Notes: generated from the letters alone by a model not told the origin. DNA of 64,000 bases from an uncultured Solibacteraceae bacterium (GCA_964584785.1 CAZPBY010000012.1:56590-120589); one strand, 5' to 3'. Counted from the first letter of the stretch, positions 17,272 through 62,586 are shown. Translations and numbers: made by a program.

Positions 17272-17464
17272 GGGCCCTCCTCTTGTCGTTAATCCGTTCA
17301 AGGACGCTTCTGCTCTACCACAATCGCCGCGGCCAACGCAAAATCTTGCGCGTCGCCCGGATCATCTGTTGTCGTAACTCAGACACGATAGGTCTAGCGT
17401 CGGAGAGATTGTGAAGAGGAGGAATCTTAAGGAGTCGCCCGTTTGTGGGATGGTAACGTCAGGG

Positions 17465-28935: not shown

Positions 28936-28967
28936 AGCAGTGTCCTTCTTTTACGAATTTCGAAGTG

Positions 28968-29975
28968 TTACTCGTTCTCTTTAACTATGGAGTCCCGGAC
29001 TGCGTAAGGCGGCCGATCCATGGTTCGAAAGTGCATGCGTGCAAGGTACTCACCGATAATCCCGAGAGCGAAAAGCTGTGCTCCTGAGAAAATGGCGATG
29101 ACGGAAGCGAGAAAAGGAAATCCAGCGACTGTGCTGCCATACTTCAAGTACTTTGCCAGGACGTACATCAAGACTCCAACACCGAAAAAGGTGAAGAAAA
29201 ATCCGACGATACTTGCAACCTGAAGTGGAAACGTGCTGAAACCGGTCATCATGTTCATCGCATGACGAATCAGTTTACCCAGGGTGTAGCCGGACCTGCC
29301 GATAGTGCGCTGATCGTGACGCACAGTAACAGCCGAGAATCTCGTGGTACCCCACGTCAACAAAACGTCAATGGAAACGTAGGGACCTCTATAATTGGCA
29401 AACGCTTCGCGCAACTGAGTTCGGAATGCACGATAGGTACTCACGCGGCGAGCTGTTTCCGCTCCCATCGCGCTCTGAAGCGCTATTTTCGTCAAGGTTG
29501 AGGCCAGGTCTCTCAGTAACCCGTGCCGTTCCTGGTCTGGCCGCGCATAAACGACGTCAAACCCTTCGTTCAATTTCGAAAGGATCTTAGGTATCTCTTC
29601 GGGTGGATTCTGAAGGTCGTCGTCCAGTGTAATCGTCACATCGAATTGGGCGGCTCGGATTCCGCAAAGCAACGCGTTGTGTTGACCGAAATTCCGCATC
29701 AATCGAATTCCGTGCACCCAATCGTGTTCTTGGGCAAGGCGGGTGACGATGTCCCAACTGCGATCCTTGCTGCAATCATCAACCAGAATGACTTCGAAGT
29801 TTGAAGTGCAAGACATCAAAACTGGTTCGAGGCGTTCCGCCAGCAAGGACAGGCTGTCCTGACTGTTGTAGACTGGAACAACGATCGAAACGCCGTGTTT
29901 CAGAGCGTCCTTGTCGACGCCGGTCCACAGCGTGGTTTCCGAAATTCTATCGTTGATCGATATCATCGTATTCAT
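28968..29975 (-). CDS. GT2-family polyprenyl-phosphate glycosyltransferase (ArnC/GtrB-like) with a C-terminal transmembrane anchor.
   Basis: [13 protein letters not shown]...[14 protein letters not shown] DxD-type N-terminus. Two or three C-terminal TM helices. Start placed at 29975 (MNTMISIND), which overlaps the rmlA stop as ATGA, with GGAGG upstream. Confidence 0.75.
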
Positions 29976-30874
29976 CGCAGGCTGTCCTCCAAAACGATAT
30001 CCTGCAGATATTTCCCATAAGGGTTCTTCAAAGCTTTCGCCAAATCCAACATTTGCTGCGCCGTGATGAACCCCTGGCGATAGGCCACTTCTTCGATGCA
30101 CGCGATCTTGAAACCTTGACGCGCCTGAATCGTCTCGACGAAAGCCGATGCCTGCATCAGGGATTCGTGTGTACCGGTATCGAGCCAGGCAAAACCGCGC
30201 CCGAACCGTTCGACCGAGAGTTGCCCGCGGCGCATGTACTCGCGATTGACATCCGTGATTTCCAGTTCGCCGCGAGCCGAAGGTTTTATGCTTCCGGCAA
30301 TGTCCACAACCTGATTGTCATAGAAGTACAAGCCGGTCACCGCAAAGTGCGACTTAGGTTGTGCCGGCTTCTCCTCAATCGAAATCGGCCGCCACTCCGA
30401 ATCAAATTCCACAACGCCATAGTGCTGGGGCTCACTCACGGCATAGGCAAAGTTTGTGGCTCCTGTCGAACGAACTGTAGCTGCGACAAGTTTTTCCTGA
30501 AAACCCTGGCCATAGAAAATATTGTCGCCGAGTATCAGTGCGACGTGGTCGCGCCCAATAAACTCGCGCCCTACCAAAAACGCTTGCGCCAGACCTCCAG
30601 GATGCGGCTGCACAGCATAAGTAATGCGGATGCCGATCTTGCTGCCATCGCCCAGTACCCGTTCGAAGCTGCCGATGTCGTGAGGGGTTGAAATCACCAG
30701 GACATTTCGGATCCCTGCCAACATCAGTGTCGACAGCGGATAGTAGATCATCGGCTTGTCGTAGATCGGCAGCAGCTGCTTGCTGATGGCATGCGTCACC
30801 GGATACAACCTCGTCCCGAGCCCTCCGGCAAGAATGATTCCCTTTGTGAACGCGGGCGTCTGGTCAGCCATCAA
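29972..30874 (-). CDS. rmlA: Glucose-1-phosphate thymidylyltransferase (RmlA/RfbA).
   Basis: [46 protein letters not shown] is the canonical RmlA N-terminus. Confidence 0.9.
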
Positions 30875-32235
30875 GCCAACCTCCTCGAAGCAACGAGCGG
30901 CCGCCGTACCCAGTCACCAACAACCAGCGCCGCTTGCGCGGCGAACAGCAACATCGCAAACTCCACGGGATAGTGGTAACGGATATTCCACCCTCCGATG
31001 TAGCTGTAAACCGCGGTGTCCGCAATGATCAACAAAAGAGCAACGCAGTCGATCCAGTATTCTCTAATGAATGACATTCCGTGCCGCACCTGAATCAGCC
31101 GGGACACCACGACAGGAATACTCAGGATCAGGAGGAGATAGTACGGCACTCTTCGCCCCAGCATGTACGACAATGAATAATCATCTCGATACCTGGGAGG
31201 TTCCCACCAAAAATGCGAAAGGTTCATCAGCACCAGACGTCCCGAATCGAGCGGGGAGTCACCGATGGCGGACTTTATTGCTTCCGCCAGCATTTCACCT
31301 TCCTGGAGTTCATTCAGCGTACGGCCGCGTTTCTCCAGGTCAATCAGTGTTTCATCGGACAAGGGCATGGGATAGCCGGCCTCGGATCGAGTCTTCAGTA
31401 GTTCGTGGCCGGTAGCGGCTCTCATGACGATCCGGTCAAACAAGATGTAGTTCCGAATGAACCAAGGAGCAATCACCACGAAGACCACGGCTCCAGCGGT
31501 GACGACGCAAACGAGCTTGTCGGCATACCGGTCGCGAAAAACGAACGCCGCTACGCAGAGAGCCAGAGTGGTGAACAACAACGTCCCTGGGTTGGTCATA
31601 CCGAGAACGCCGGCAGTTGCACCGCAGCAGGCAAACCTCCGCACCGTCGGATTCTTCTGAAGGCCCGCTACAAGGTAGAGGAACACCGACAACAAAAACA
31701 GAAGGACGATAGTCGACTCCGGTGACGTAGCACACTGATATATAAAAGGTGGATAAATGGCGAAGCCCAGGGCAAACGCCAGACCGATTAGGGTCGAATG
31801 GGAACGAAACGTCAGGAACAACGTGACGGCCGTAAGCCCCGCTATCACGCTATGCACTATGAAGAGGGCCAGAAAATTTCCGCTGCCGAAAACATAAAAC
31901 ACAGCGGCAATCAGGAACGGAAACACCGGCTGCTTCAGCGTTGTCGGCCGGGCCCCGCCGATCACGGGATCTTGTATCTTTTTCTCGATATCCTGAACAA
32001 GGTTCCCATAAACCATTCGGGTGCGCCATTCCGTGTCCAGCGAGTAACCGTTTCCACGTACCAGATTCCTGCCGATCGATACATCTTCCCAATAGAGAAC
32101 CTTGTCGTTGCCCTTGAAAGTGGCCGCGATCGCCAGAAGGCGTATGCCTACTGCCAGACAAAACAGCAGTATGACTATCGTTCTGGTGCTGGGAAGGAAC
32201 TCCGTCGCGTTCCTTGCGTTCATCATCCTTCTCAT
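30871..32235 (-). CDS. Polytopic membrane glycosyltransferase of the GT-C fold (ArnT/PMT-like, GT39/GT83-type). Assignment is tentative.
   Basis: About 11 predicted TM segments. The first periplasmic loop ([18 protein letters not shown]) resembles the acidic-loop region of ArnT/PMT_2 enzymes. Sits in the same block as the ArnB- and ArnC-like genes. Confidence 0.5.
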
Positions 32236-32257
32236 TCTGAAAAACCTCTAAGATCTG

Positions 32258-33706
32258 CTATGCGGGCGCCAGGGCGGAAGACTCTTCGATTCGTGCTGCC
32301 TGCGACTTGACGTCAAGGCTGCTCACGACGCCGGTCAACCAAAATCCGATCACGTCGAACATTTGGTCCCACCGAAGATCCGACGTTAAACCCAGTATGA
32401 AAAAACACAAGACGGCTACAAGGCCGACGAGGGCAAACCTTCTTTCGTAAGCCCACTGCTCCCCTTTCAAGTGCCAGTAAGCGCGGAGGCACACTAGAAA
32501 TGAAAATAGAATGATCCCTCCATAACTGAGGAAACCTAGTATTCCCAGTTCTGCCAGGATGCCGAGAAGTGAACTGTGGTTGCCGTCTTCCAATTCGCGG
32601 ACTTGAGAAAAGCCAGTTGGAAAGTACTTGTCCCACTCATGAAGAAACCGGCCGTATCCGACTCCGAATAGCCAGTGGTCCTTGAACATGTTGTAGGTAG
32701 TTTCATAGTTGGCATAACGGTATTCGACCGTTTGCTGGCGCCGGGAGAAGAGCGTATCTTCGCCCGACGAAAACTTTGAGCCGGCACCCGAAAAGAACCC
32801 AACGACCAGCAAGCATGCGAGCACCATGGAGTTTCTGCGCATTGGAGTCTTCAAGAGCAAAGTCGTCGCCATGATGGCCGCGAATCCAAGCCAAATCGCT
32901 CTGGTTTCTGTGAAGTAAACGGCGAGTACGACGAAGCCATAGAGCATGAGAGTAATCATGCGCTTGATTCCGGTCCACTCTGCCATCATGCAAGCAAGAG
33001 CCGCGAAGGTCACCAGTAAGATGCCGCCATCGGTCACCGAACTCAGGAACGGCCCCCTGGCTCTGCCAAAGTGTATGCCTATACCGTCTCGCATGATGTA
33101 CGACGGGATAACAAGCTTCGGGAAGAAGTGCTCGCAAATATTCGTAATTGCCAGGTAGATGCAAATACCTGAAAGCCACTTCAGTATTCGGTCTATGGAC
33201 TCCCTGCTGTGATCCAGACGCCGCGCGATCGCATACGCCACTCCCGGCCAGACTGGAAAGTTGAAGATTGTCGTCAGCAATCGAAACGCCTGGTTCTCAG
33301 CGTCACCGCCTGATGTGAGGTAAGAGAGTGTGACGACCACGAAGTAGGTCACCATCAGCAATCCGACCATCGCGGCGGCAAATCCGGCTTTGGGTTTCTC
33401 CGAACCTTTGGGTGCGGCCGGACGCCCGAGGTACGTCACCAGAATCGCGCCGAAAGCTATCCGATCCGGGAAGAAACTAAGTCCGATATTCCAATTGAAT
33501 ACCGGCATGTATTTGTATTGAAAACACTGCAGGAACATCCAGACGCAGAACAACCTGATGAGTTTTTCATCCGGCGTCAACGCCTTGGCCCGGCCGATGA
33601 TCCTCGCGACTGTTGGTTTCGGTTCCCGGACCGGCTTTCCAACACGTGCTGCCACCGGTGACTTCAAGCCCGGTCTCAGTTCGTTTTTTATTTTCCCAAC
33701 GAGCAT
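32258..33706 (-). CDS. O-antigen ligase / Wzy_C-family polytopic membrane protein (polysaccharide polymerase or ligase).
   Basis: 482 aa, at least 10 TM helices, and a periplasmic loop with a Wzy_C-like region (FLHEWDKYFPTGFSQVRELEDGNHSSLLGILAELGILGF). Confidence 0.65.
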   Translation of the reverse strand: MLVGKIKNELRPGLKSPVAARVGKPVREPKPTVARIIGRAKALTPDEKLIRLFCVWMFLQCFQYKYMPVFNWNIGLSFFPDRIAFGAILVTYLGRPAAPKGSEKPKAGFAAAMVGLLMVTYFVVVTLSYLTSGGDAENQAFRLLTTIFNFPVWPGVAYAIARRLDHSRESIDRILKWLSGICIYLAITNICEHFFPKLVIPSYIMRDGIGIHFGRARGPFLSSVTDGGILLVTFAALACMMAEWTGIKRMITLMLYGFVVLAVYFTETRAIWLGFAAIMATTLLLKTPMRRNSMVLACLLVVGFFSGAGSKFSSGEDTLFSRRQQTVEYRYANYETTYNMFKDHWLFGVGYGRFLHEWDKYFPTGFSQVRELEDGNHSSLLGILAELGILGFLSYGGIILFSFLVCLRAYWHLKGEQWAYERRFALVGLVAVLCFFILGLTSDLRWDQMFDVIGFWLTGVVSSLDVKSQAARIEESSALAPA

Positions 33707-34086: not shown

Positions 34087-37000
34087 ATGGTCGGTCGGCG
34101 TTCATGTCGAATTCGATTACGTACACTCATTAGCCTTAGCCTTCTAGCGTCATCGCGCCAACAAGCTCAAACACCCACCGGCATTTCGGCCGAAGCAAGC
34201 CGGACGGTTCACGAGTCGGCGGCGATCCTTACGTACACCAACCCAGCCGGTATCGTCGTCTCGCGTGCCGGAGTGAACCCAACGGAGCCGCTCAAATCGG
34301 GCCTGATATTTGTCGATCAGACCGGCCCGACGACGGGCATTACGCTTGCCAATCCATCGGACCAATCAGCATCGCCCACGCTCATTCTGCGCGACGAATC
34401 GGGCCGGGAGACCGCACGAAGAACGCTCGACCTGGCGGCGAAACAAGATAGTGACGTTACCATCAGCGAACTGTTTCCTGGATTGCCTGACGGCTTCCGC
34501 GGCACCCTCGCCTTTGAGTCCGATCAGCCGCTCGCCGGAAATGGTTTCCGCGAAAACATTAACGCATACGGCGAGTCCATCCTTTCGAGTGTTCCTGCCG
34601 TTGATTCCGCATCACCTTTATCCGCAGAACCGTTGGTTCTCCCTCACATTGCTGCCGCGGGCGGGACAACCGACGTTGTGCTGGTCAACACCGCCGACCA
34701 GAGGGTCCGCGGAACCATTCGGTTGATCGGGCCGTCCGGCAAGCCATTGGCGATGCGGCTGAGTGACCACATCGGATCGCAGTTCGGCTACGAGATCGAA
34801 GCCGGGGGCGTTTACCGCGGTCGATTCGAGAGCCTGTCCGCCGGGGCAGCCGGTTATGCGATCGTCACTCCCAACGACGGAGACTCTACTCCGACGGGAA
34901 TGCTGATTTTCCAGGCCACATCCGGCAGAGGGCTGGTCTCCGAAGCGATTGTTGCCGTCAACGAAAGACCCACAACGTCCGCCAGAGTTTTTGTCGATAA
35001 CGCAACTGCAAGGACCGGGTTCGCAATCGCCAACCCCAATCTCGTTTCCACAACGGTATCTTTTGCGTTGCTTGATGCGAACGGCACTGCCGTTGGGAAA
35101 GTCACAACCGAGCTCGCTCCTCGTGGATACAGCGCGGTGTTTGCTAATGAACTCTTCCCGCAGCTGGTGGACGGCTTTGAAGGATTGCTCGACATCACAG
35201 CTCCCCTGCCTGTAGTACCGATCAGCTTGATGGTCGCCTTGAACGAGAGGAACGATCCAATTCTAACTTCGCTTGATATTGTGGACCTGGATCATCCACT
35301 TGAGTCGCAGTCTCTGGTTTTCCCGCAGACTTCGTTCGGGTTGCAGGCAGCTGCGCGCCTGATTGCGATCGAAGCGAGCAGGGATTCGTCAGCCGGCGTC
35401 ATTTTGACGCTATCGCAACTGGACAGCACCCAACTTCATAGCCTGTCCTTGAGCGGCAGTGCCAATCAGTCCGGATCTCAATCGGGAAAGAAACCGGTGG
35501 CGTTCGCGCCCGGCAACGCTCCGCGACTCTCTGTTGCGGCCACGTGTGATCCGCTCCTTCAAAATCCCATCATGTCCGAATACCAATTGACCGGAAATCC
35601 ACAGATCGAATGGGATGTGACCGGAGCCGGCGATTCCAGTATCCAGGGATTCGCATCGGAGATCAGTGTCAATAAGGGTGAGACAGTCTTCTTTAAAGTC
35701 AGCACTCCCTCGACAAGTTACCGTCTCGATATATATCGTCTGGGCTACTATGCCGGCGCTGGTGCCAGAAAAATAACCACTGTCAATCCGTCCGTCGTTC
35801 TACCGCAAAATCAGCCCGCTTGTCTGACGGATTCCACGACGGGCTTGATCGATTGCGGCAACTGGGCTGTGTCCGCTTCCTGGGCCGTTCCTTTGACGGC
35901 CGTTTCCGGCGTCCACATTGCAAAGCTTGTGCGACAGGATGGATCGACCGTATCAAGCCACATTGTGTTTATTGTCCGGGACGACGCAAGCACGTCCGAT
36001 CTTCTTTTCCAGACTTCGGACACCACCTGGCAGGCCTACAACAGTTACGGCGGCAACAGTTTCTACACCGGCTCTCCGGCAAGCCGCGCCTTCAAGATTA
36101 GTTATAACCGGCCATTCAATACCAGGGTAACGAACACCAACAGCTGGTTGTTTGGCGCGGAATATCCGATGATTCGCTTCCTCGAGGCGAACGGGTATAA
36201 CGTCACCTACTTCACGGACATCGATACGGATCGCCGGGCCTCGCTCCTGCTTCAGCACAAGGTTTTCCTGTCGGTGGGTCACGATGAGTATTGGTCCGCT
36301 GCCCAGCGCACAAACGTCGAAAACGCCCGCGCGGCCGCCATCAATCTGGCGTTTTTCAGCGGCAACGCGGTGTTTTGGAAGACACGGTGGGAAAACAGCA
36401 TCGACGGATCGAATTCCCCTTACAAGACGCTCGTGTGTTACAAGGAGACCCACGCCAACGCGAAAATCGATCCCACTCCGGTTTGGACGGGAACCTGGCG
36501 CGATCCCAGATTCAGTCCTCCAGCGGATGGCGGCCGACCATCAAACAGTCTGAAAGGAACACTCTTCTCGGTCAACGGTCCGCGAAGTGACGCCATTGCC
36601 GTGCCGTCGACTTATGCTCCCTTGAGGTTCTGGCGAAACACCACGGTCGCTTCACTTTCATCCGGTCAGACAGCGACGTTCCCCGTAGGTACGCTGGGTT
36701 ATGAATGGGACGAGGCACCGGATGGACCTAACGCGCCTCCGGGTCTGGTCACGATGTCGTCCACCACTCTGGATGTTTCGCCCAGCTACCTTTTGAACTA
36801 CGGCTCGACGTTCGGTTCCGGCATAGCGACGCACCAGCTGACTCTATACAAACACAGCAGCGGCGCTCTGGTTTTCAGCGCGGGAACCGTACAGTGGGCA
36901 TGGGGGTTAGACAATATTCATGACGGCTCTGCCCCGGCTCCTGACGTGCGCATGCAACAAGCGACGATCAACTTGTTCGCCGATATGCGCGCGCAGCCGC

Positions 37001-40000
37001 TAACACTGCAATCGGGGCTTGTGGCAGCCACTGCTTCGACGGACACCGTTGCTCCCTCGTCCACGATAACTTCGCCTGCTACTGGGGCGGCCTTCAGCTT
37101 CGGTAGTACCTTGACGATAACCGGTACGGCCGCTGACACCGGTGGTGGCGTGGTCGGAACAGTGGAAGTATCCACGGACGGTGGTGTTACCTGGCGCCGA
37201 GCGACGGGCAGGCAGAGTTGGAGCTACACCTGGACAGCTTATACATCGGGATCCATCAACATCAAAAGCAGAGCCGCAGACGATAGCGGCAACCTGCAAG
37301 TCCCGGGCGCCGGCATCAACGTCACAGTGGCAGCACCATTATGCCCATCCACAACTGTATCGTGCTTCAGTCTTTGGAACAGCAGCGCGACTCCTACCGT
37401 TGCCTCTGCCAACGATGCCAGTTCGGCAGAGGTTGGCGTGAAATTCAAGTCCGATGTGAACGGATACGTAACCGCTGTTCGTTTTTACAAGGGCACTCAA
37501 AATACCGGCAACCACATCGTAAACCTCTGGACAAGCGCCGGTACGCTGATGGCAACCGCGCCGACCGTCAACGAAACCGCATCAGGCTGGCAACAGGCCA
37601 ACTTCGCCTCTCCCGTTGCGGTAACCGCCAATACGACCTACGTTGCTTCTTACTTCACGCCCACGGGTTTCTATTCTTATTCACGACCATACCTTACATC
37701 CGGCTTCGACAACGCGCCATTACATGCGCTCGCGGATGTAGCTTCGGGGGGTAACGGAGTTTATCGCTACGGCGTGGCGTCAGGCTTTCCGACCAGTGCC
37801 TATCAGGCATCCAATTTCTGGGTGGACGTTTTCTTCACTACGGCAACACCGTCGGACACGACGCCACCGGTCATCAGCGCGGTTCAGTCCGCCGGTGTAA
37901 CCTCAAACGGAGCGACCATTACATGGAGTACCAACGAGGCATCCGACAGCCAGGTCGAATACGGTACGACCACAAGCTACGGATTGAGCACGCCGGTCGA
38001 TTCCAATCTTGTTTTAAGCCATTCGCAGCAGCTTTCGGGTCTCACTGCTGGAACGTTGTATCACTACCGCGTGAAGAGCAAGGATGCGTCCGGCAATCTT
38101 GCGGTGTCTGCCGACTTCACTTTTTCGACTCCCGCAGGCTGTTCCTGCGACGTCAGTCTTTGGAATAACAGTCCTACCCCCGGCTCCAGCACGGATGGAA
38201 GGGCTCTCGAAATAGGTGTGAAGTTTAAGTCGGACGTGAACGGGTATATCAAAGCGATCAAGTTCTATAAAGGGCCACAGAACACCGGTTCCCATACGGC
38301 GAATCTATGGACCAGCACCGGTACTCAGTTAGGACAGGCTCTGTCCAGCGGAGAAACGGCAACGGGCTGGCAGACCGTTAATTTTTCTTCGCCGATCGCG
38401 ATCACCGCCAATACGGTTTACGTCGCGTCTTACTTCACAACGTCTGGATTTAATGCCGTCACCAACGGCTATTTTACTTCCGGCTTTGACAACGCACCAC
38501 TGCATGCCCTGTCGGACGCAAGTGCCGGAGGAAATGGACTCTACCGATTCGGCTCAACCTCGGGGTTCCCGAACAGCAGCTATCAGGCTTCGAACTACTG
38601 GGTGGATGTTGTGTTTGCCACGACAATCGCCACGGATACCACCCCACCGGTCATCAGCAGTGTCCAGGCGGGATCGATTACAACCACGACCGCCACGATT
38701 ACATGGACCACGGATGAGGCGTCGGACTCTCAGGTCGACTATGGGACCACAGCCAGCTATGGCTCGAGCACTCCGCTGAACTCATCTTCCGTTACGAGCC
38801 ATTCGCAGCAGATTACGGGTCTCACAGCAGGAACGTTGTATCACTACCGTGTCAGGAGCAGGGATGCAGCCGGCAATACAGCCAATTCGTCGGATTTGAC
38901 ATTCTCGACGACTGCCGATACCACAGCGCCGGTGATCAGCAGCGTCCAGGCCGGTTCGATCACAGCCACGTCGACGACGATTACCTGGAGTACAGACGAG
39001 GCGTCGGATTCTCAGGTCGAATATGGAACAACAATCAGCTACGGGTTGACGACGACGCTGAATTCCACTCTCGTCACCAGCCACTCCCAACCGCTTACCG
39101 GATTGGCTGGTGGTACGCTGTACCACTACCGCGTCAAGAGCAAGGATGCAGCCGGCAATCTGGCAGTCTCGGCAGACTTCACATTCACCACAATAGCGCT
39201 GGATACGACGCCGCCGGTTGTCAGCAATGTCCAGGCCGTCTCCATCACGACGACGTCGGCGACGGTCACGTGGAGCACCGATGAAGCATCCGACACTCAG
39301 GTGGATTACGGAACGACGATCAGTTACGGTTCGTCCACTACTCTGAATTCCTCGCTGGTCACCAGCCACTCGCAACCTCTTGCAAGTCTGACGAGCGGCA
39401 CGTTGTATCACTATCGAGTCCGAAGCAAGGATGCAGCCGGCAACCTGACAGTCTCGGCAGATTTCACTTTCACGACTACCGCAGCGGATGTCACTCCTCC
39501 GGTTATCAGCGGTGTTCAGGCGGGTTCGATTACCGCCGCGGCGGCTACGATCACCTGGAATACCGATGAAGCATCGGACAGTCAAGTGGATTACGGCACC
39601 ACGACCGGTTACGGGTCGTCAACAACGCTGAACGCCTCGCTTGTCACCAGTCATTCGCAGCAGCTCACGAGCCTGACCACCGGGACGTTGTACCACTATC
39701 GCGTCAGAAGCAAGGATGCCGCAGGCAACACGGCCGTGTCCGCCGATTTCACGTTCACGACGCTCGCATCCTGCAACTGCGACGTCAGTCTTTGGACCAC
39801 GAGCATCACTCCCGGAAATAGTACGGATTCTCGCGGCGTCGAAGTTGGGGTAAAGTTCAAGTCCGACGTTAACGGTTTCATCAAAGCGATCAGGTTCTAT
39901 AAGGCGAGTCAAAGTACCGGCCCGCACACGGTAAGTCTCTGGAGCAGCACCGGAGCCTTGTTAGGACAGGCACAAACGACGTCGGAAACAGCGTCGGGAT

Positions 40001-40266
40001 GGCAGACGGTGAACTTCGCTACTCCGATAGCGATAACGGCCAACACCGTCTACGTCGCGTCCACATTTTCGCCTTCGGGTTATAACGCCCAGACCGTCTT
40101 CTACTTCAACTCGGGCTTTGACAATCCTCCGCTGCATGCTCCGGATAACGGCTCGTCGGGAGGGAATGGTGTCTATAGGTTTGGGACGACAGCTGGTTTT
40201 CCGACGAGTAGCTATCAAGCATCCAACTACTGGGTGGACGTGATTTTTGCTACTTCGATTCCTTAG
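34087..40266 (+). CDS. 2059-aa secreted multidomain protein. Order of modules: signal peptide; ~3 ANP-type beta repeats; a large DmfA2-like (N,N-dimethylformamidase large-subunit-like) domain; an Ig-like domain; DUF4082 #1; Fn3; DUF4082 #2; 5 tandem Fn3; DUF4082 #3.
   Basis: Three copies of the DUF4082-like module (SLWN..TP.......EVGVKFKSDVNGY..A.RFYKG.QNTG.H..NLWTS.G...Y.AS..W.DV.F). Fn3 units of the form TTPPVIS.VQAGSIT...ATITW.TDEASDSQV.YGTT.SYG..T.LNS.LVTSHSQ.L.GL..GTLYHYRV.S.DAAGN. N-terminal repeats GITLANPSDQ... and GFAIANPNLV... are shared with gene 7216. Confidence 0.8.
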   Translation: MVGRRSCRIRLRTLISLSLLASSRQQAQTPTGISAEASRTVHESAAILTYTNPAGIVVSRAGVNPTEPLKSGLIFVDQTGPTTGITLANPSDQSASPTLILRDESGRETARRTLDLAAKQDSDVTISELFPGLPDGFRGTLAFESDQPLAGNGFRENINAYGESILSSVPAVDSASPLSAEPLVLPHIAAAGGTTDVVLVNTADQRVRGTIRLIGPSGKPLAMRLSDHIGSQFGYEIEAGGVYRGRFESLSAGAAGYAIVTPNDGDSTPTGMLIFQATSGRGLVSEAIVAVNERPTTSARVFVDNATARTGFAIANPNLVSTTVSFALLDANGTAVGKVTTELAPRGYSAVFANELFPQLVDGFEGLLDITAPLPVVPISLMVALNERNDPILTSLDIVDLDHPLESQSLVFPQTSFGLQAAARLIAIEASRDSSAGVILTLSQLDSTQLHSLSLSGSANQSGSQSGKKPVAFAPGNAPRLSVAATCDPLLQNPIMSEYQLTGNPQIEWDVTGAGDSSIQGFASEISVNKGETVFFKVSTPSTSYRLDIYRLGYYAGAGARKITTVNPSVVLPQNQPACLTDSTTGLIDCGNWAVSASWAVPLTAVSGVHIAKLVRQDGSTVSSHIVFIVRDDASTSDLLFQTSDTTWQAYNSYGGNSFYTGSPASRAFKISYNRPFNTRVTNTNSWLFGAEYPMIRFLEANGYNVTYFTDIDTDRRASLLLQHKVFLSVGHDEYWSAAQRTNVENARAAAINLAFFSGNAVFWKTRWENSIDGSNSPYKTLVCYKETHANAKIDPTPVWTGTWRDPRFSPPADGGRPSNSLKGTLFSVNGPRSDAIAVPSTYAPLRFWRNTTVASLSSGQTATFPVGTLGYEWDEAPDGPNAPPGLVTMSSTTLDVSPSYLLNYGSTFGSGIATHQLTLYKHSSGALVFSAGTVQWAWGLDNIHDGSAPAPDVRMQQATINLFADMRAQPLTLQSGLVAATASTDTVAPSSTITSPATGAAFSFGSTLTITGTAADTGGGVVGTVEVSTDGGVTWRRATGRQSWSYTWTAYTSGSINIKSRAADDSGNLQVPGAGINVTVAAPLCPSTTVSCFSLWNSSATPTVASANDASSAEVGVKFKSDVNGYVTAVRFYKGTQNTGNHIVNLWTSAGTLMATAPTVNETASGWQQANFASPVAVTANTTYVASYFTPTGFYSYSRPYLTSGFDNAPLHALADVASGGNGVYRYGVASGFPTSAYQASNFWVDVFFTTATPSDTTPPVISAVQSAGVTSNGATITWSTNEASDSQVEYGTTTSYGLSTPVDSNLVLSHSQQLSGLTAGTLYHYRVKSKDASGNLAVSADFTFSTPAGCSCDVSLWNNSPTPGSSTDGRALEIGVKFKSDVNGYIKAIKFYKGPQNTGSHTANLWTSTGTQLGQALSSGETATGWQTVNFSSPIAITANTVYVASYFTTSGFNAVTNGYFTSGFDNAPLHALSDASAGGNGLYRFGSTSGFPNSSYQASNYWVDVVFATTIATDTTPPVISSVQAGSITTTTATITWTTDEASDSQVDYGTTASYGSSTPLNSSSVTSHSQQITGLTAGTLYHYRVRSRDAAGNTANSSDLTFSTTADTTAPVISSVQAGSITATSTTITWSTDEASDSQVEYGTTISYGLTTTLNSTLVTSHSQPLTGLAGGTLYHYRVKSKDAAGNLAVSADFTFTTIALDTTPPVVSNVQAVSITTTSATVTWSTDEASDTQVDYGTTISYGSSTTLNSSLVTSHSQPLASLTSGTLYHYRVRSKDAAGNLTVSADFTFTTTAADVTPPVISGVQAGSITAAAATITWNTDEASDSQVDYGTTTGYGSSTTLNASLVTSHSQQLTSLTTGTLYHYRVRSKDAAGNTAVSADFTFTTLASCNCDVSLWTTSITPGNSTDSRGVEVGVKFKSDVNGFIKAIRFYKASQSTGPHTVSLWSSTGALLGQAQTTSETASGWQTVNFATPIAITANTVYVASTFSPSGYNAQTVFYFNSGFDNPPLHAPDNGSSGGNGVYRFGTTAGFPTSSYQASNYWVDVIFATSIP
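38641..39770 (+). repeat. Four tandem near-identical ~285-bp coding repeats (Fn3 units 2-5 of the six) inside gene 34087.
   Basis: Fn3 copies 2-5 begin at about 38641, 38921, 39211 and 39496. The more diverged copy 1 begins at about 37861, and DUF4082 copy 2 lies between Fn3 copies 1 and 2. Protein identity between tandem copies is high. The antisense ORF 38782-39585 is a repeat artefact. Confidence 0.8.
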
Positions 40267-40288: not shown

Positions 40289-40954
40289 TTAAACGAGGTG
40301 TTTTGTAATCCAGTCTTCGGCGCCGTTGCTTGATGCCAGCTTGAGAACCGGATTCACGTCATAGAGCCGTTCGATTCGCTCGACCGTGAGATCGCTGGTA
40401 TCGATCACCATTGCGCAAGCCGTCGCTTTCAACTCGCGCGACTGACCTACTGAACCGGGATTGAGCAGGTAGGGCTTCTTGTCGGTCCGGCAAACGACGC
40501 GATGCGTTTGCCCGAAGAGGATCACGTCGTAGTCGAATTCACTCAGCCGGTCGAGAGCCGCAGAACCGGGATACATGTAATCCTCAATCGTACGCCACGG
40601 ACTGCCATGAACCATGAGGAAAGTCCGACCGTCGAGTCGTCCGGACCAGGTCAGAGGGAGTTCGGATAGCCATCGGCGGTTCTCGTCTGAAATGCTCTGT
40701 CGCGCAAACTCGACACCGAATCGGACACTCGCCGGAACATCGTCCGGACAGCCGTAGAGCAGAAAGTAGTCATGATTGCCGAGGATAGACCGCACGCCCA
40801 TGGCACGAACGTAGTCCATCACCTCATTTACCTGGCAATAGTATCCGGTGAGGTCACCGGCGCAAAGAATCCGATCGGCCGATTCGAGGACATCGCTCAA
40901 CGCCTTCAATGCTTCGAAATTTGCATGAAGATCACTGATCAGGGCGATGCGCAT
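40289..40954 (-). CDS. Metallophosphoesterase (calcineurin-like phosphoesterase, YfcE-like).
   Basis: MRIALISDLHANFEALKAL...ILCAGDLTGY...LGNHDYF carries the DxH...GD...GNHD/E motifs. Confidence 0.85.
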   Translation of the reverse strand: MRIALISDLHANFEALKALSDVLESADRILCAGDLTGYYCQVNEVMDYVRAMGVRSILGNHDYFLLYGCPDDVPASVRFGVEFARQSISDENRRWLSELPLTWSGRLDGRTFLMVHGSPWRTIEDYMYPGSAALDRLSEFDYDVILFGQTHRVVCRTDKKPYLLNPGSVGQSRELKATACAMVIDTSDLTVERIERLYDVNPVLKLASSNGAEDWITKHLV

Positions 40955-40958
40955 AGGC

Positions 40959-42095
40959 TTAATGCAGGATGTGAGTCAATGGAGTATCGACGGTGAGAGG
41001 GCTGACATCTCCGGGAACTTCGGGCATCGCTTCCTTTCGCATCCCGTAATCTTCAACTTCCAGTTCGTACAATTTTGGATTATCGAGCACGCTGGATTTG
41101 GACAATGTCGCGTAAGCGTCCGTATCGACGTACACTTCGTTCCAATAACGCAGCATGATTCCTTTTGTAATCCGAGGAAGGTCGACCGCCGGCTCACCGA
41201 GCGCGTAGTGGCGAATCGCGGCCTCGACTTCATTGAAGCCCAGCCGGGCTCGCACTGGAGTCGTTCCCGAGAATCGGACGTTCACCTCGAAGCAGACCGG
41301 ACGCCCACCGGACGTCCTGAGCTGGATGTTGCAGGGCCCCATGGGCCTCAAGGCCTGAGCAATCCGGACAGCCTCTTCACACACGTCGTCAAAACGTCCG
41401 ACTTCCGCGCGGGCCGTGGTTCCGCTGAGAAGATCGCGGCGCATGGCAATCGCTCCGCGGACTTTGCCTTCGCTGTCGCTGAAGCATCCGACGGTGTACT
41501 CGTGATCGGCGTCACCAAGTAACTCCTGAACGATATAGTCATTCCGGCTGCCGATGAATGCGAGATCGGCATCGTTGCGCAGTTCGAAAATGCCCCGCCC
41601 CCCTTTCCCGTTCAGCGGCTTTGCGAACAAAGGGTATCCGCACTCGGCGACAAGCGCCGCCAGCCTCTTCGTATCGGTTGAAGACGCGTAGCGGGGAAAG
41701 TTAAGGCCCTGCTGCTCCAGCCACTGGCAAGTGAGCAGCTTGTCACCACCAATACGAATAGCTTCCGGGCTACTCACGATGCAGATCGCGCCCGTCCGCT
41801 CTCGAATGAATTGAACGTGTTCCGACAGGACCGCAAGCACCGGTTCAACACCGGACAGGATGACGCCCACGCCCTCAGCCACCGATGTCTCGATCAGCCA
41901 GGGCAGGAAATCCGGACTTGCCGCCGGCGGACATACGTACGAACGATCGACGGTATACAAACCCATCGCTAGCGGACTAACACATGCACCCACAACTCTG
42001 CAATCGAGGTTGCTCAAAGCAAGAGCCTTCAGAATGCCTTGGCTGACAGAGCCTCCCACTCCAAGTACAAGCACTGTCAGCTTCTCGTTTTTCAT
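40959..42095 (-). CDS. ATP-grasp domain protein (carboxylate-amine ligase-like).
   Basis: 378 aa. N-terminal pre-ATP-grasp Rossmann region (LTVLVLGVGGSVSQGILKAL). Central ATP-grasp region (YPLFAKPLNGKGGRGIF). Overlaps the start of the downstream metallophosphoesterase closely. Confidence 0.7.
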   Translation of the reverse strand: MKNEKLTVLVLGVGGSVSQGILKALALSNLDCRVVGACVSPLAMGLYTVDRSYVCPPAASPDFLPWLIETSVAEGVGVILSGVEPVLAVLSEHVQFIRERTGAICIVSSPEAIRIGGDKLLTCQWLEQQGLNFPRYASSTDTKRLAALVAECGYPLFAKPLNGKGGRGIFELRNDADLAFIGSRNDYIVQELLGDADHEYTVGCFSDSEGKVRGAIAMRRDLLSGTTARAEVGRFDDVCEEAVRIAQALRPMGPCNIQLRTSGGRPVCFEVNVRFSGTTPVRARLGFNEVEAAIRHYALGEPAVDLPRITKGIMLRYWNEVYVDTDAYATLSKSSVLDNPKLYELEVEDYGMRKEAMPEVPGDVSPLTVDTPLTHILH

Positions 42096-42166: not shown

Positions 42167-45100
42167 TTACTGTATGAATTGGAATGCGCCGATATCCCAG
42201 GCGGATCCTATAGGCCGCTTCTTTCCAGCGAAATCCACATCGAACCCGGTCGCATGTAAATCAATTCCCCGCTGGACCGCCGGGTTGTTCGACTTCAGGT
42301 GGAAATTACCGTTCGCCGGATCGACAAACAAATCTGCGTTCGACGGCAGCGATTGAGAATGAGGTCCTTCCTGCCAACCGTTTGAGATGAGGGTTCCATT
42401 CACGAGAATGTTGTAATCACTATCGACTACGGTCGAATCAAACGCAGCGAGTTCAAACGTGCCGAACGGCACGTTAGCAAGGAGATTGTTCCGCACAATG
42501 ATTTTCTTCCCATGAGCAACGCCAATGCCGACACCGTTCAGGGTGTTGTTGAATATTTGGACATCGAGGTTAAAGGTGTACGGATACCTGTCCGATTCAT
42601 CGCCGGCGACGGCGATGCCTGAAGCAGAGTTGGAAATCACGTTGTTACGAATGACAGTTCCGTTCTGGTTCAACAGCGCGCTGAGGGCATAGCCGTTCCG
42701 GTCGAGAATCTGGTTGTTTTCGATGAGGTAGTCCGTCCTGTCGACCGGAACGTTGTCCAATCCCGGAATGACACCGAGCGAAACGATACCGCTCGAAAAC
42801 GCGTTTCCGCCCTTGAGCACGTTGCCGCGGATCGTGACGTTTCTCAATCCCGCTTTCAAATCGATCTGGTCGGTTTCTCCACCATTCGAGTCGGACTGAT
42901 CCAAAAGATTGTTCTCGATCAGAATGTCGCTATGCGTATTGCCCCACAGGAGGCAGCCACCGTCACCCAGGTAATTTCCGGAAATGTATATCGCCTCGCC
43001 ATAGCCTCGTTCGACGACGTTGTTTCGCAGCGTAATGTCCTCGAGATTGCCAAACACGGCGGCGCAGTTGACGTTAACCGCAGCGTGAAAAATCACGCTG
43101 GGTCCCGTGTTCAACAGATCGTGAATGTGCATGTACTCAACGACCGTCGAGTTTCCCGCAAACGCGACGCGCCCCGTGGTTCCGCTTACATCGAATCCGC
43201 GAATGGTGGTGTAGTGATTCGGGAAATCGGTGAACGGCGACTGAACGCCAATTGAAAGTCCGCCGGTAGTAATGCTGACGTTGAACTTGTTCGTGCCGGA
43301 GTAATCCACCCAGGATGGCGCGTCATCGTTCGTGTTGTACTTCGACATGCCATCGAGCGTGAGCCGGTTTGTTCCAATATCGGTGCGCCAGAGGTTGATT
43401 TCCTTGTTTTCGATTTCCGGCGTGTCGGATGTTGCTTGACGCGCGCTGTAGTACACGATCACGTTGTTTGTGGCCAGAGCAGCATTGACCGCAGTCCACT
43501 GCTCGTTCGGCCGATCGGTCGCAAACCTCTTCCATGGATGTGCAGCGCTTCCATCGCTGATCAAGCCGGTATAAGTCGGATCGACATAGAAAGCGGTTTG
43601 ACTCTCGGCCGACAGTACGGCGACGGTTGTGCTCGCCGTGTCGGTGACGATGCCGTCGCTGACAGTGAGATCAAAGCCGTACACTCCTGCCATCGTGAAC
43701 GAAGCTGTCGTGGTGAGTGCCCATGGCGCCGAAAACACCGCCTGCGCCGGCCCGCTTGTCTGCTTCCACTCCACGGTGTAAGACACATCGTCGACGCCGC
43801 TCACATGCCCGAACAGACTCACGTCGCGCACAGGAAGAGCGATGGTTTTCAGCGGTCCTGTATCCACGGTGATCGAAACAGGGTTGACCGTGACCTGGAC
43901 GTCGCTGCTTCCTGAAAAAGGCCCATGTGCCGCCGTCAACCGAAGCTTGTAGTGTCCGGGTGCTGAAAAGTTCGCAGTTGCGGTGAGGGAAGCCGGGTCG
44001 CTGAACGTCACCTCGCCCGGGCCACTTACTTTGCTCCACGTTGTGCCGAAGCCTGCGCTGTGCGGAACCTCTTCCGCCGATCCCGCCATCGTGGCCGCGG
44101 CGGGCAACCTGACGGTCTGGTCCGGTCCGGCGTTCACAGTGATCGTCGGCGACGCCGTTACGGTGAGATCGCTGATGGCGGTATACGGACCTTCCGTCCC
44201 TGTGAAACGCAGGACGTAGGTACCCGCTTCGGAAAACTCGGCGGTACTTTCCGGGAACGCCGAATTGCCGAACGACACGTCGCCCGGGCCGCTCACCTTG
44301 CTCCACAACACGGTGAACGATTCGCTGGCCGGAAATACGGTCGCCGAACCTGCAAGCGAAATCAGTCCCGGCAGCTTGACGTCTTGATTGGGTCCTGCGA
44401 CCACCGTGACGGTAGGTGTCGCGATCACCGTCAGATCGCCGGCCGCCAGCAGAGGAGGATCGTTCGCGGTCAAGCGCAGCACGTAAGTCCCCCACGCGGA
44501 AAATGTCGTTGTGGAAGATGGAGAAGCAGCGTTGTCGAACGTAACGTCGCCCGGGCCGCTTATCTTGGTCCACAGTATCGTACCGTTGGCGCTCAGGCCT
44601 TCGACGGTTCCGGGCAGAGTCAGCGACGCCGGCAATTTGACGTTCTGAGTGGGACCCGCATTCACGGTAAGCGCGGGGGCAACGGTTATCGTGATGTCGC
44701 TCGACGCACTAAACGGTCCGTCTGTCGACGTCAGCCGCAAGACATACGCTCCCCAGATAGAGAAGGCAGCGGTCGAATTGACAGATGACGCATTACTGAA
44801 CGTGACGTCGCCCGGGCCGCTGACTTTGCTCCACGATGTCGCGAACGCAGCGCTTGCGGGCGTTGAATTCGCCGTGCCGGCAAGCGTCGCCGTAGCCGGA
44901 AGCTTGATGTTCTGATTTGCCCCGGCATTCGCCGTGATCGTCGGTGTTGTCGTTATCGTCACATCGCTGGTTTCGCTGAAGGGACCGTCGCTGGACGTCA
45001 ATCGGAGGACATAGGTGCCCCACGCCGAGAAAGTCGCTGTCGTATTCAAAGAGGCTGCATTCGCAAATGTGACGTCGCCCGGGCCGCTCACTTTGCTCCA

Positions 45101-48100
45101 GGCTGTCGCGAATGCACCGCTCGCCGGAGTCGAAGTGCCGGATCCAGACAGTGTGGCCTCCGCGGGCAGCTTGACGTTCTGATTCGCCCCGGCGTTCGCC
45201 GTGATCGTCGGAGTAGTCGTCACTGTCAAGTCGCTTGTCTCGCTGTATGGAGCATCGGTCGCCGTCAGCCGCAACACGTAAGTGCCCCACGCCGAAAAAC
45301 TCGCGGTCGTGCTTAAGGACGACGCGTTGCTGAACGTGACGCTCCCGGGACCACTCACTTTGCTCCAGGAAGTTGCAAACGTCGCCGTCGCCGGAGTCTC
45401 CGTCGCTGCGCCGGCCAGGGATGCCTCGGCGGGCAGCTTTACATTCTGATTGGCCCCAGCTGTAGCCGTAATGGTCGGGCTGGCGGTGATCGTCACGTCA
45501 CTGCTGGCGTTGTGAGGTCCGTCCGAGGCGGTCAGCCGCAGCACATAAGTTCCCCACGCCGAAAAACTGGCTGTTGTGGCGGGCGACGTCGCATCAGCGA
45601 AGGTCACCTCGCCCGGTCCACTGACTTTGCTCCACGCTTTCGTGAACCCAGCGGAGGCAGGAGTTTCACTGGCACTACCGGAAAGCGTAGCCGTCGCAGG
45701 CAGCTTAACGTTCTGATTGGCTCCCGCCGAAGCCGTGATCGTCGGCGTGGCGGTAATCGTCAGTTCGCTGATTGCACTGAACGGCCCGTCTGTTGCGGTC
45801 AGGCGCAAGACGTACGTGCCCCAGGCTGTGAAATCCGCGGTAGTGGCGACGGAATTTGGATTGGCGAACGTGACGTTTCCTGGTCCGCTCACTTTGCTCC
45901 ACACAGTCGTGAAGCCCGTACTGGCTGGGGTTTCGGCCGCAGCAGCTGCAAGCGTGCCAGAGGCCGGCAGTTTCACATTTTGATTAGGGCCGGCGGTGGC
46001 CGTGATCGTTGGCGTCGTGGTAATCGTGACATCGCTGATTTCGCTGAACGGGCCATCCGTCGCTGTTAACCGCAGGACATACGTTCCCCATGCAGAAAAA
46101 CTCGCGGTTGTGCTCGAGGACGCGGCGTTAGCGAATGTGACATCGCCAGGACCGCTCACTTTGCTCCACGCAGTCGCGAATCCGGCGGCCGTCGGAGTTT
46201 CAGTCGCAACTCCGGCGAGCGCTGCCGCAGCGGGGAGTTTGACATCCTGATTGACGCCCGCGGAGACAGCAATCGTGGGTGTGGTGATGATCGTCACCTC
46301 GCTGGTGGCGCTGAAAGGGGTGTCCGTCGCCGTCAGCCTCAAGACATATGTTCCCCATGCGGAAAAACTCGCCGTCGTGTTCAAAGACGCAGCGTTAGCG
46401 AACAAGACGTCGCCGGGACCGCTGACCTTGCTCCACGCCGTCGCGAATCCAGCCCCCATCGGCGTTTCACTCGCACTTCCCGCGAGTGCTGCCGCAGCAG
46501 GCAGCTTCACATTCTGATTAGGTCCGGCCGCTGCAGTGATCGTAGGTGTTGTGATGATCGTAACGTCACTCGCCGCATTGAACGGTCCGTCCGTCGCAGT
46601 CAAACGCAGGACGTAGGTTCCCCACGCCGAAAAAGTCGCTGTTGTGACTGGAGACGCCGCATTTGCGAAAGCGACATCGCCTGGACCGCTCAGCTTGCTC
46701 CATGCGGTGGCGAATCCCGCGCTCAACGGGATCTCACTGGCATTGCCCGACAGCGTAGCGGCCGCAGGTAGCTTCACATTCTGATTGGCTCCGGCGCTGA
46801 CCGTAATGGTCGGTGCTGCGGTTACTGTGAGTTCGCTGATCACACTGAAGGGACCATCCGTCGCGGTTAACCTCAAGACATATGTCCCCGACGCTGAGAA
46901 ATCCGCCGTCGTGCCCGGAGAGGCTGGATTGGCGAACACCACGTTCCCAGGGCCGCTTACCTTGCTCCATAACGTTGTGAACCCGGCGCCGCGCGGTGTC
47001 TCACCGGCAATTCCGGCAAGTACGGCCGACGCAGGCAGCATGATGTTTTGATTGGCACCGGCGGTGGCGGTGATCGTGGGTGTGGTGACGATTGTCACGT
47101 CACTCGACACACCGAACGGTCCGTCCGCCGCGGTCAAACGCAGCACGTAGGTGCCCCACGCCGAAAAAGTCGCTGTTGTGACTGGAGACGCCCCATTTGC
47201 GAAAGCGACATCGCCGGGACCGCTGACCTTGCTCCACGCGGTGGCGAATCCCGCGCTCAACGGGATCTCACCCGCATTGCCGGACAGCGTCGCGGCCACA
47301 GGGAGCTTCACATTCTGATTGGCACCGGCGCTTACGGTAATGGTCGGTGTTGCGGTTACTGTGAGTTCGCTGATCACACTGAAGGGACCATCCGTCGCGG
47401 TTAACCTCAAGACATATGTCCCCGACGCTGAGAAATCCGCCGTCGTGCCCGGAGAGGCTGGATTGGCGAACACCACGTTCCCAGGGCCGCTTACCTTGCT
47501 CCACAACGTTGTGAATCCGGGGCCGAGCGGCGTCTCACCGGCAATTCCGGCAAGTACGGCCGACGCTGGCAGCATGATGTTTTGATTGGCACCGGCGGTT
47601 GCGGTGATCGTGGGAGTGGTGACGATTGTCACCTCACTCGCCGCATTGAACGGTCCGTCCATCGCAGTCAAACGCAGGACGTAGGTTCCCCACGCCGAAA
47701 AAGTCACCGTTGTACCTGGAGAGGCAGCATTTGCGAAAGCGACATCGCCCGGCCCGCTCACCTTGCTCCACGCAGTTGCGAACCCCGGACTCATCGGCGT
47801 TTCACTGGCATTGCCCGACAGCGCAGCGGCCAAAGGGAGCTTCACATTCTGATTGGCTCCGGCGCTGACCGTAATGGTCGGTGTTGTGGTTACTGTCACT
47901 TCGCTGATCGCAATGAAGGGACCATCTGTCGCGGTTAACCGCAAGGCATATGTTCCCCATGCCGAGAAATCGGCCGTCGTGTTCGGCGAGGCTGGATTAG
48001 CGAATAGGACATTCCCGGGGCCGCTTACCTTGCTCCATAACGTTGTGAATCCGGAGCCGAGTGGTGTCTCACTCGCAATTCCGGCAAGTACGGCCGACGC

Positions 48101-50113: not shown

Positions 50114-50288
50114 GACACTAGCTCCCCAGTGTCCTGTCCTTGGCTCGTGTCGTGTGTGAGCTAAACTATCTTGCTTGCGCTCACTTACTCCACCTGCCGG
50201 CCATACTGCCGGCAAGATGGACCACATCGAAACTATTCGTACCCGAGGACGGACTATCTGTGCAGCCTATCGAATGAACGCGTCGTTT

Positions 50289-62583: not shown

Positions 62584-62586
62584 GAC

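Follow-up and report, generated by a model that had tools for sequence, protein, structure and literature searches.

What role does a protein of 2,059 amino acids (aa) play when it joins a dimethylformamidase (DMFase)-like domain to three copies of the orphan domain DUF4082 and is encoded within a set of surface polysaccharide genes? The protein (hereinafter the target protein) is the product of a single open reading frame (ORF) with an ATG start at positions 34087 to 40266 (plus strand) of a 64,000-nucleotide stretch of DNA from an uncultured Solibacteraceae bacterium; we call the whole stretch the window and count positions from its first letter. From about 17.4 kb to its end, the window is a surface/exopolysaccharide locus. 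The answer that we favor, tentatively and with slightly more doubt than confidence in the statement as a whole, is that the target protein is a secreted metal-dependent amidohydrolase that is tethered by its DUF4082 domains and possibly acts on a glycan of N-acylated amino sugars.

All matches reported from a Pfam-A scan of the whole protein exceed the curated cutoffs. DUF4082 (PF13313) matched three stretches with 482 bits (gathering cutoff, 28.4 bits), DMFA2_C (PF20254) matched residues 547 to 943 with 335 bits (E 1e-99; profile positions 2 to 370 of 374; cutoff, 27 bits), and Big_7 matched residues 990 to 1059 with 35.3 bits (cutoff, 24.1 bits). The Fn3-type domains were matched by Pur_ac_phosph_N (five stretches) and fn3 (four stretches). 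An initial annotation, prepared from the DNA sequence, had called three DUF4082 modules, one DmfA2-like domain, and Ig-like and Fn3 domains from motif patterns and had named the detection of DUF4082 and the DmfA2-like domain by hidden Markov models (HMMs) as the point on which these calls hung. Both were detected, and the calls were correct, as the HMM scores confirm each of them. Self-BLAST delimited the DUF4082 segments (residues 1085 to 1255, 1353 to 1512, and 1891 to 2059; mutual identity, 57 to 63%, with 63% between copies 2 and 1), the Fn3 segments (1255 to 1350, 1516 to 1610, 1610 to 1704, 1706 to 1799, and 1800 to 1894; approximately 70% identical), and two N-terminal repeats (57 to 187 and 283 to 414; 35% identical). 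The Fn3 domains had been described as five in tandem; their number stands, but both self-BLAST and Pfam place one of them between DUF4082 copies 1 and 2 and the other four between copies 2 and 3. The protein terminates in a DUF4082 domain, ending ...NYWVDVIFATSIP, and many homologs likewise end in DUF4082. No NCBIfam model for the known sorting signals (i.e., PEP-CTERM, LPXTG, and the type IX secretion system C-terminal domain) matched the protein at E ≤ 0.01, which agrees with the lack of a recognized anchor noted at the outset. Export through the Sec pathway is probable, judging from a signal peptide read by eye from the translation and from the clear signal peptides of the homologs.

With the single protein as the query, a PDB sequence search returned no relative of the core (aa 486 to 985). 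A 12-sequence family profile retrieved N-acetyl-(R)-beta-phenylalanine acylase (8i5a; E 1.7e-16; profile positions 107 to 293) and the large subunit of DMFase (6lvb; E 9e-11). In the DMFase of Paracoccus, a mononuclear Fe(III) is bound by Y399, Y440, and E521; the enzyme also requires the nearby H519, and activity is lost in the mutants Y440A, E521A, and H519A (PMC7686228). We mapped these residues onto the family motifs with HMMER, using the Y440A and E521A mutant DMFase chains as internal markers (Table 1). The Tyr/Tyr/Glu iron ligands and the His of DmfA2 (Paracoccus sp. DMF; 6LVB), which shares the DMFA2_C domain, align with Y651, Y660, E734, and H732 of the target protein, and these four columns are kept in 83 of 83 aligned family sequences. 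Y651, Y660, and E734 are candidate metal ligands and H732 is a candidate catalytic residue, and conservation of this extent argues for a catalytic metal site rather than a decayed one. We consider it somewhat more likely than not that the target protein is an active metal-dependent amidohydrolase.

Although it is DMFase-like in its site, the target protein is probably not a dimethylformamidase, because approximately 280 DMFase residues are missing from it and because it is predicted to be exported, whereas DMFase is a cytoplasmic alpha2-beta2 enzyme. The homology is distant: the core of approximately 500 aa, compared with approximately 760 to 775 aa for the DMFase large subunit, aligns only to DMFase residues ~3 to 49 and ~340 to 552, leaving residues ~50 to 335 without a counterpart. 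Unlike DMFase, it is fused to Big_7, DUF4082, and Fn3 domains and to an extra N-terminal module. A gene for the small subunit, DmfA1, is not evident beside the target gene, which is flanked by genes for Wzy_C and metallophosphoesterase family proteins, although no dedicated DmfA1 search was made. The acylase (8I5A/8HUY) is the best solved relative of the core; it has the QAY and H-x-E-Y motifs in common with the family and hydrolyzes an N-acetyl amide, but it differs from the target protein in being a single enzyme of approximately 775 aa that lacks binding modules and acts on a small molecule. A literature search on this acylase returned nothing functional.

The initial annotation regarded the domain architecture as unusual, which our searches contradicted. 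A search of 5.8 billion proteins recovered the target protein itself (P0001, from NCBI) and 11 full-length relatives (P0002 to P0012) with 45 to 55% identity over the shared part. In all 11, a signal peptide directly precedes the core of approximately 500 aa, followed by Big_7, DUF4082, and more DUF4082 copies with spacers; the NCBI name for these relatives is "DUF4082 domain-containing protein" (e.g., WP_052676720.1 of Microbacterium trichothecenolyticum; P0008). A scan with the core profile, run on one genome for each GTDB species, matched at least 600 loci; the 80 that were kept (54 to 71% identical) do not include the genome of the window. These 80 loci belong to at least eight phyla (Actinomycetota, Acidobacteriota, Pseudomonadota, Verrucomicrobiota, Cyanobacteria, Chloroflexota, Planctomycetota, and Bacteroidota), and 72 of their 82 core-bearing ORFs fuse the core to one to five copies of DUF4082, most of the exceptions being cut by contig ends. 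Culturable organisms that carry an ortholog include M. trichothecenolyticum, Nostoc sp. NIES-4103, Nitrobacter sp. TKz-YC01, and Actinoplanes spp. When 1.84 billion cluster representatives were searched exhaustively with HMMER, 4,503 matched at E ≤ 1e-30; the top 150 representatives were all multidomain proteins (589 to 2,958 aa), and DUF4082 was present in 108 of the 149 that were re-examined. Because the order of signal peptide, core, Big_7, and repeated spacer-plus-DUF4082 units recurs across homologs, the architecture is the family norm, and the target protein is an ordinary member of a known, uncharacterized family. Its membership in this secreted DMFA2-like/Big_7/DUF4082 family is almost certain.

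Variation within the family concerns the DUF4082 copy number (1 to 8), the type of spacer (Fn3, Big_5, and others), and the N terminus. More than 150 aa lie ahead of the core in 32 of 149 representatives. Eight loci (L003, L010, L015, L022, L023, L034, L050, and L078) carry N-terminal extensions of 900 to 1,350 aa before the core, so the N terminus is a hot spot for added modules. The order of signal peptide, core, Big_7, and DUF4082 repeats is found, at 45 to 55% identity over the shared part, in WP_052676720.1, in HEY1285353.1 (from a Solirubrobacterales metagenome-assembled genome; P0006), and in P0095. One further relative, P0064 (2,958 aa), has the DMFA2-like core twice in one chain. The literature searched for DUF4082, PF13313, and PF20254 yielded nothing functional; in these searches, two papers named DUF4082, in lists only, and the Pfam accessions were cited in none.

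To model DUF4082, we used AlphaFold2 (AF2) with an alignment of 30 copies from the window and homologs. The model of copy 1 is an all-beta jelly-roll beta-sandwich (predicted local distance difference test [pLDDT], 90.9; predicted template modeling score [pTM], 0.88), and each of the three window copies retains the columns that are invariant in 30 of 30 copies (e.g., H62, E82, W87, Q88, Y104, and D166 of copy 1). Sequence searches against PDB, either with one DUF4082 copy or with a DUF4082 profile, found no relative. Foldseek searches of PDB gave weak matches, including the PBCV-1 capsid protein (E 2e-4) and a mycobacteriophage central fiber. PHR domains were among the best fold matches of the model, namely, those of BTBD2 (3NO8; template modeling [TM] scores, TMq 0.57 and TMt 0.63) and MYCBP2 (3GBW/3HWJ), and a weak Pfam PHR match appeared in the whole-protein scan and with copy 3. 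Identity to these PDB fold matches is at most 14%. Sugars are not established ligands of PHR domains, and a literature search on PHR domains and galactose binding was uninformative. The initial annotation had asked whether DUF4082 has a carbohydrate-binding fold. The model bears out a jelly-roll, but the similarity to lectins and carbohydrate-binding modules (CBMs) is weak: thrombocorticin (E 0.007), the Cwp84 lectin-like domain, CBM35 (2w46; E 0.1), and a porphyran CBM (8xmz; E 0.09) were matched, with TM scores of 0.3 to 0.45 for thrombocorticin and the two CBMs. Neither PDB Foldseek, PDB profile, nor Pfam searches produced a significant sequence or structural match of DUF4082 to an established CBM or lectin family.

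Predicted viral structures (BFVD) gave a closer match, the best being A0A7S5QUK7_1, an 830-aa phage protein (E 2e-9; TMq 0.77; 25% identity). Many Streptomyces phage minor-tail proteins and collagen-repeat fiber proteins followed, and matches to their distal parts dominate. Since the domain of A0A7S5QUK7_1 matches the DUF4082 model, the comparison suggests that phage proteins and bacteria share a DUF4082-like module. By its predicted fold, DUF4082 is thus a jelly-roll of a type found in distal binding domains, and sugar binding is a plausible role for it. A search for partner domains with the DUF4082 profile returned mostly two-copy proteins of approximately 300 aa and contig fragments, with little on partners. 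Many free-standing proteins of approximately 300 to 320 aa consist of two DUF4082 copies and nothing else (P0215 to P0334; e.g., in the complete genome of Streptosporangium lutulentum), indicating that DUF4082 also works outside the enzyme fusion. A pair of Cys residues precedes each DUF4082 copy of the target protein (LCPSTTVSCFSLW, GCSCDVSLW, and SCNCDVSLW at positions 37339 to 37380, 38137 to 38170, and 39769 to 39800, respectively). CPCS-x-W is the family consensus in many copies, and the Cys pair may form a disulfide or a metal-binding motif.

The glycan-related setting of the target gene is shared by many family loci. Using the window DegT aminotransferase and hexapeptide acyltransferase as queries, we counted homologs lying no more than 10 kb from the family gene in each of the 80 kept loci: DegT homologs were present in 32 loci, hexapeptide acyltransferase homologs in 25, and either or both in 36. 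Any glycan gene was found in 45 of the 80 loci; among the 49 with full 10-kb flanks, the number was 28. DegT or acyltransferase genes often adjoin the family gene on the same strand (e.g., with a spacing of +36 bp in L042, -4 bp in L075, and -108 bp in L055). When all neighboring ORFs were clustered without bias and annotated with Pfam, the top partners were DegT, Bac_transf, GT2, Hexapep, Epimerase, GFO_IDH_MocA, ABC_tran, and GT4. Two other neighbor clusters (clusters 2 and 3, in 19 and 16 loci, respectively, with no Pfam match) were rejected as partners; they consist of Arg/Ala/Gly-rich antisense ORFs of high-G+C DNA, many of which overlap the family gene. Independent gene calls for the P0004 locus (L082) place ATPgrasp_Ter before Epimerase, DegT, and the family gene on one strand; Bac_transf, NTP_transferase, two GT2 genes, Polysacc_synt, and GT1 come next.

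In the function that we favor, the target protein would be exported via Sec as a multidomain extracellular enzyme, and its core would hold a mononuclear metal bound by Y651, Y660, and E734; by analogy with DMFase, this metal would be Fe(III). H732 would assist catalytically, and the bond hydrolyzed would be an amide (N-acyl) bond. Separated by Ig and Fn3 domains, the three DUF4082 jelly-rolls would bind a polymeric ligand multivalently and thereby hold the enzyme on it. Both ligand and substrate would most likely be the surface polysaccharide of N-acylated amino sugars that the surrounding locus produces, on which the target protein would serve as a post-polymerization de-N-acylase or trimming enzyme; taken separately, the proposal that a glycan is the substrate is possible but rather doubtful. 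PgaB, IcaB, and PelA are de-N-acetylases encoded inside exopolysaccharide loci. The likeness to them is one of functional analogy, in that an exported enzyme is encoded in a polysaccharide locus and amide cleavage on an amino-sugar polymer is proposed for the target protein. However, PgaB, IcaB, and PelA have the CE4 fold, whereas the target core is DMFase-like with a Tyr/Tyr/Glu site and is separate from the two CE4 proteins of the window.

Several points weigh against this function. The two CE4 polysaccharide deacetylases in the window could cover de-N-acetylation, the signal peptide of the target protein itself is weak, and glycan genes are absent from the 10-kb surroundings in approximately half of the family loci (e.g., L081; the P0007 locus has none). 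The strong enrichment that we read into the presence of DegT at 40% within 20 kb, because DegT genes are usually few in a genome, is an estimate based on that general knowledge of DegT counts rather than on matched random loci. Owing to the approximately 280 absent DMFase residues and to a small subunit that is not expected, the pocket and the substrate may differ from those of DMFase. DUF4082 is without a close structural relative of known ligand binding, its best cellular match (PHR) being no established sugar binder, and our literature search gave no biochemical account of any family member.

Other explanations are less probable. One, which we hold to be unlikely, is a secreted scavenging acylase or amidase for small soluble N-acyl compounds (e.g., N-acyl amino acids, formamides, or N-acyl amines). 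The DUF4082 and ANP modules (the latter being the extra N-terminal module) would then only hold the enzyme on the surface or matrix of its producer, and the glycan neighborhood would be incidental to the location of a surface protein. Both solved relatives use small molecules (i.e., DMF and N-acetyl-beta-phenylalanine), the active site is conserved, and about half of the family loci are without glycan genes, all of which would fit such an enzyme. It would not account for the tight same-strand adjacency to DegT, acyltransferase, and glycosyltransferase genes in many unrelated phyla, and multivalent binding modules are typical of polymer-acting enzymes. A still less likely alternative is that the target protein has chiefly a structural role, as a surface protein or adhesin (S-layer-like or part of a matrix), and that the PMT_2-like and Wzy_C/PglL-like enzymes encoded next to it O-glycosylate it, with the DMFA2-like domain serving in binding or assembly rather than as a catalyst. 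Its very large size, modularity, and Ser+Thr content (25% of the whole protein and 37% of the four-Fn3 array) are consistent with this, as are the divergent neighbors from the Wzy_C and PMT_2 families and the other giant PKD and beta-helix surface proteins of the locus. Nevertheless, conservation of the four DMFase active-site residues in every aligned member, together with a core that is 54 to 71% identical across phyla, argues for conserved catalysis, and Pfam and NCBIfam scans of the target protein gave no match to an S-layer or adhesin family.

The fold resemblance of DUF4082 to distal domains of phage tail fibers and minor-tail proteins raises the prospect of an antagonistic or nutritional enzyme directed at foreign polymers (peptidoglycan, chitin, or the capsule of another microbe), with DUF4082 binding its target in the manner of phage receptor-binding domains. 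Some DUF4082 proteins carry PF00722, PF00404, and PF00963, which we take to be GH16, dockerin, and cohesin, respectively, and which would suit such a role. We regard it as improbable, as the window contains no toxin, immunity, or secretion-system genes nearby and the conserved neighbors are biosynthetic rather than concerned with catabolism or uptake. Equally improbable is a different chemistry at the Tyr/Tyr/Glu/His site (e.g., an esterase, lyase, or redox reaction on a sugar substituent such as a sulfate or an acyl ester). The core is only distantly related to the two characterized enzymes and lacks a large part of DMFase, and the glycan may bear other substituents, given the sulfotransferase and FemAB/GNAT-like genes in the locus; however, both characterized members of the fold are amidohydrolases.

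The interest of these results lies at the level of the family, which comprises thousands of sequence clusters from many phyla and is strongly conserved yet uncharacterized, whereas the single gene is ordinary. New here are the mapping of the four-residue DMFase site and its invariance, the jelly-roll prediction for DUF4082, and the DegT/hexapeptide acyltransferase neighborhood. Together, the conserved Tyr/Tyr/Glu/His site and the N-acylation neighborhood provide a testable hypothesis for the orphan Pfam family DUF4082 and for the non-DMFase part of DMFA2_C. They also bear on the natural role of DMFase-like enzymes: dimethylformamide (DMF) is a synthetic, man-made solvent and is unlikely to be a natural substrate. 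If the function that we favor is correct, the proteins known to remodel exopolysaccharides and biofilm matrices would gain both a new class of enzymes and a new binding module. A bolder proposal, which we hold to be speculative and on balance improbable, is that the rare 2-Tyr-1-carboxylate iron amidohydrolase site, so far known from DMFase, has its natural and ancestral place in this family, in the form of extracellular de-N-acylases remodeling (di)acetamido-sugar surface polysaccharides, with DUF4082 as a new CBM family. If true, it would suggest the origin of an enzyme for the synthetic solvent DMF.

The sole departure of the target protein from the family norm is the ANP module (aa 29 to 444), which sits between the signal peptide and the core and which most family members, unlike the target protein, do not have. 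It matches no Pfam family, with only subthreshold matches to DUF5719. The AF2 model (pLDDT, 82; pTM, 0.84) is all beta, its beta-sandwiches forming a compact array ahead of a disordered linker, and fold searches gave generic multi-beta-sandwich matches, the only domain-level match being TM1070 (1nc7), a structural-genomics protein of unknown function. P0095 also has the ANP module (47% identity to the target protein over 1,544 aa); because it repeats the same layout, the insertion is a genuine variant and not an assembly artifact. Elsewhere, the module occurs at the N or C terminus of many unrelated secreted proteins, those with organism labels being from Acidobacteria, in fusion with NHL/SMP-30, LTD, DUF11, TonB_C, LRR, PLD-like, or FG-GAP domains, and it looks like a mobile, lineage-specific accessory. 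These labels hint at an Acidobacteriota origin of the window.

Within the window, ANP-type repeats recur in the product of gene 7216, as the initial annotation had observed: residues 82 to 418 of the target protein align with residues 644 to 958 of that product (BLASTP; 26% identity over 339 aa; E 2e-23). The module may serve as a common surface or matrix tether of secreted proteins in the same genome. Gene 7216 (positions 7216 to 10212, plus strand) encodes a clear signal peptide in addition to the C-terminal ANP repeats, and the N-terminal ~600 aa of its product match no family, the only hit being NIDO at E 0.04.

Table 1. Features of the target protein and its surroundings in the window (positions counted from the first letter of the window; residues from the start of the target protein)
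Feature	Position	Strand	Basis
Probable Sec signal peptide, aa 1-28	34087-34170	+	Arg-rich n-region and h-region TLISLSLLASS, read from translation
N-terminal ANP module, aa 29-444 (416 aa), tandem beta-sandwich repeats	34171-35418	+	Self-BLAST, AF2 model
Ser/Gly-rich linker at fusion joint, aa 445-485	35419-35541	+	pLDDT <50, 22% Ser
DMFA2-like core, aa 486-985, putative mononuclear-metal amidohydrolase	35542-37041	+	Pfam DMFA2_C, family profile
Y651, aligned with DMFase Y399	residue 651	+	Y of family motif WQAYN
Y660, aligned with DMFase Y440	residue 660	+	Final Y of family motif GGNS(L/F)Y
H732 and E734, aligned with DMFase H519 and E521	residues 732 and 734	+	Family motif GHDEYW
Big_7 bacterial Ig-like domain, aa 986-1084	37042-37338	+	Pfam; PDB 9kvu bacterial Ig domain, E 0.008
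DUF4082 copy 1, aa 1085-1255	37339-37851	+	179.5 bits (copy scanned alone); AF2 jelly-roll model
Fn3 domain 1, aa 1256-1350	37852-38136	+	Pur_ac_phosph_N/fn3 matches, self-BLAST
DUF4082 copy 2, aa 1351-1514	38137-38628	+	168.2 bits (copy scanned alone)
Four tandem Fn3 domains (Fn3-2 to Fn3-5), aa 1515-1894	38629-39768	+	Pfam, self-BLAST
DUF4082 copy 3, aa 1895-2059, and stop codon	39769-40266	+	166.7 bits (copy scanned alone); weak PHR match
Two amidase-signature enzymes and Amidohydro_1 protein, upstream of glycan locus	2289-4142, 11884-13149, 15673-17301	-	
ANP-type repeats, C-terminal third of gene 7216 product (998 aa)	9031-10212	+	BLASTP, E 2e-23
1,048-aa PKD protein	20791-23937	+	
570-aa right-handed beta-helix protein, candidate glycan lyase/hydrolase	24131-25843	+	Weak chondroitinase-B-like match
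Upstream glycan synthesis genes: DegT, GT2, NTP-transferase, PMT_2-like, Wzy_C	27742-33706	-	Pfam
Downstream convergent genes: metallophosphoesterase and ATP-grasp (ATPgrasp_Ter)	40289-42095	-	Pfam
Giant secreted 2,685-aa protein: 23 K319L-like PKD, beta-helix/DUF5123, C-terminal "choice-of-anchor Q" match	42167-50227	-	
Sulfotransferase (54881-55900) and FemAB/GNAT-like protein (55860-56927)	54881-56927	-	
DegT (58243-59448) and hexapeptide acyltransferase (59441-59941), amino-sugar N-acylation pair	58243-59941	-	Pfam
Sigma-54-dependent response regulator, second CE4 deacetylase-like gene, GAF histidine kinase; locus edge	59975-63999	-	

The target gene is a lone plus-strand gene in this locus, with the Wzy_C gene divergent on one side and the metallophosphoesterase gene convergent on the other. 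The sugar genes of the locus encode a UDP-glucose/GDP-mannose dehydrogenase, an NTP-transferase, a GT2 enzyme, and three GT4 enzymes, accompanied by two DegT aminotransferases, a hexapeptide acyltransferase, AsnB, and a FemAB/GNAT-like protein. Wzy_C, a PMT_2-like protein, and a MurJ/Wzx-type flippase are also encoded, as are a sulfotransferase, two CE4 deacetylases, an ATP-grasp protein, a metallophosphoesterase, a sigma-54 activator, and a histidine kinase. Because the sulfotransferase and FemAB/GNAT-like genes lie inside the locus, the glycan may be sulfated and substituted with amino-acyl or acyl groups. A sigma-54 promoter for the target gene was considered, as the locus encodes a sigma-54 activator, and was rejected: the window contains 31 matches compared with 29 expected, and none lies upstream of position 34087. 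Scans of the window for sigma-70 promoters and terminators likewise gave matches at chance level. The amidase-signature and Amidohydro_1 genes that precede the glycan locus adjoin genes for a MacB/FtsX-type permease and a molybdopterin oxidoreductase subunit and appear unrelated to the target gene.

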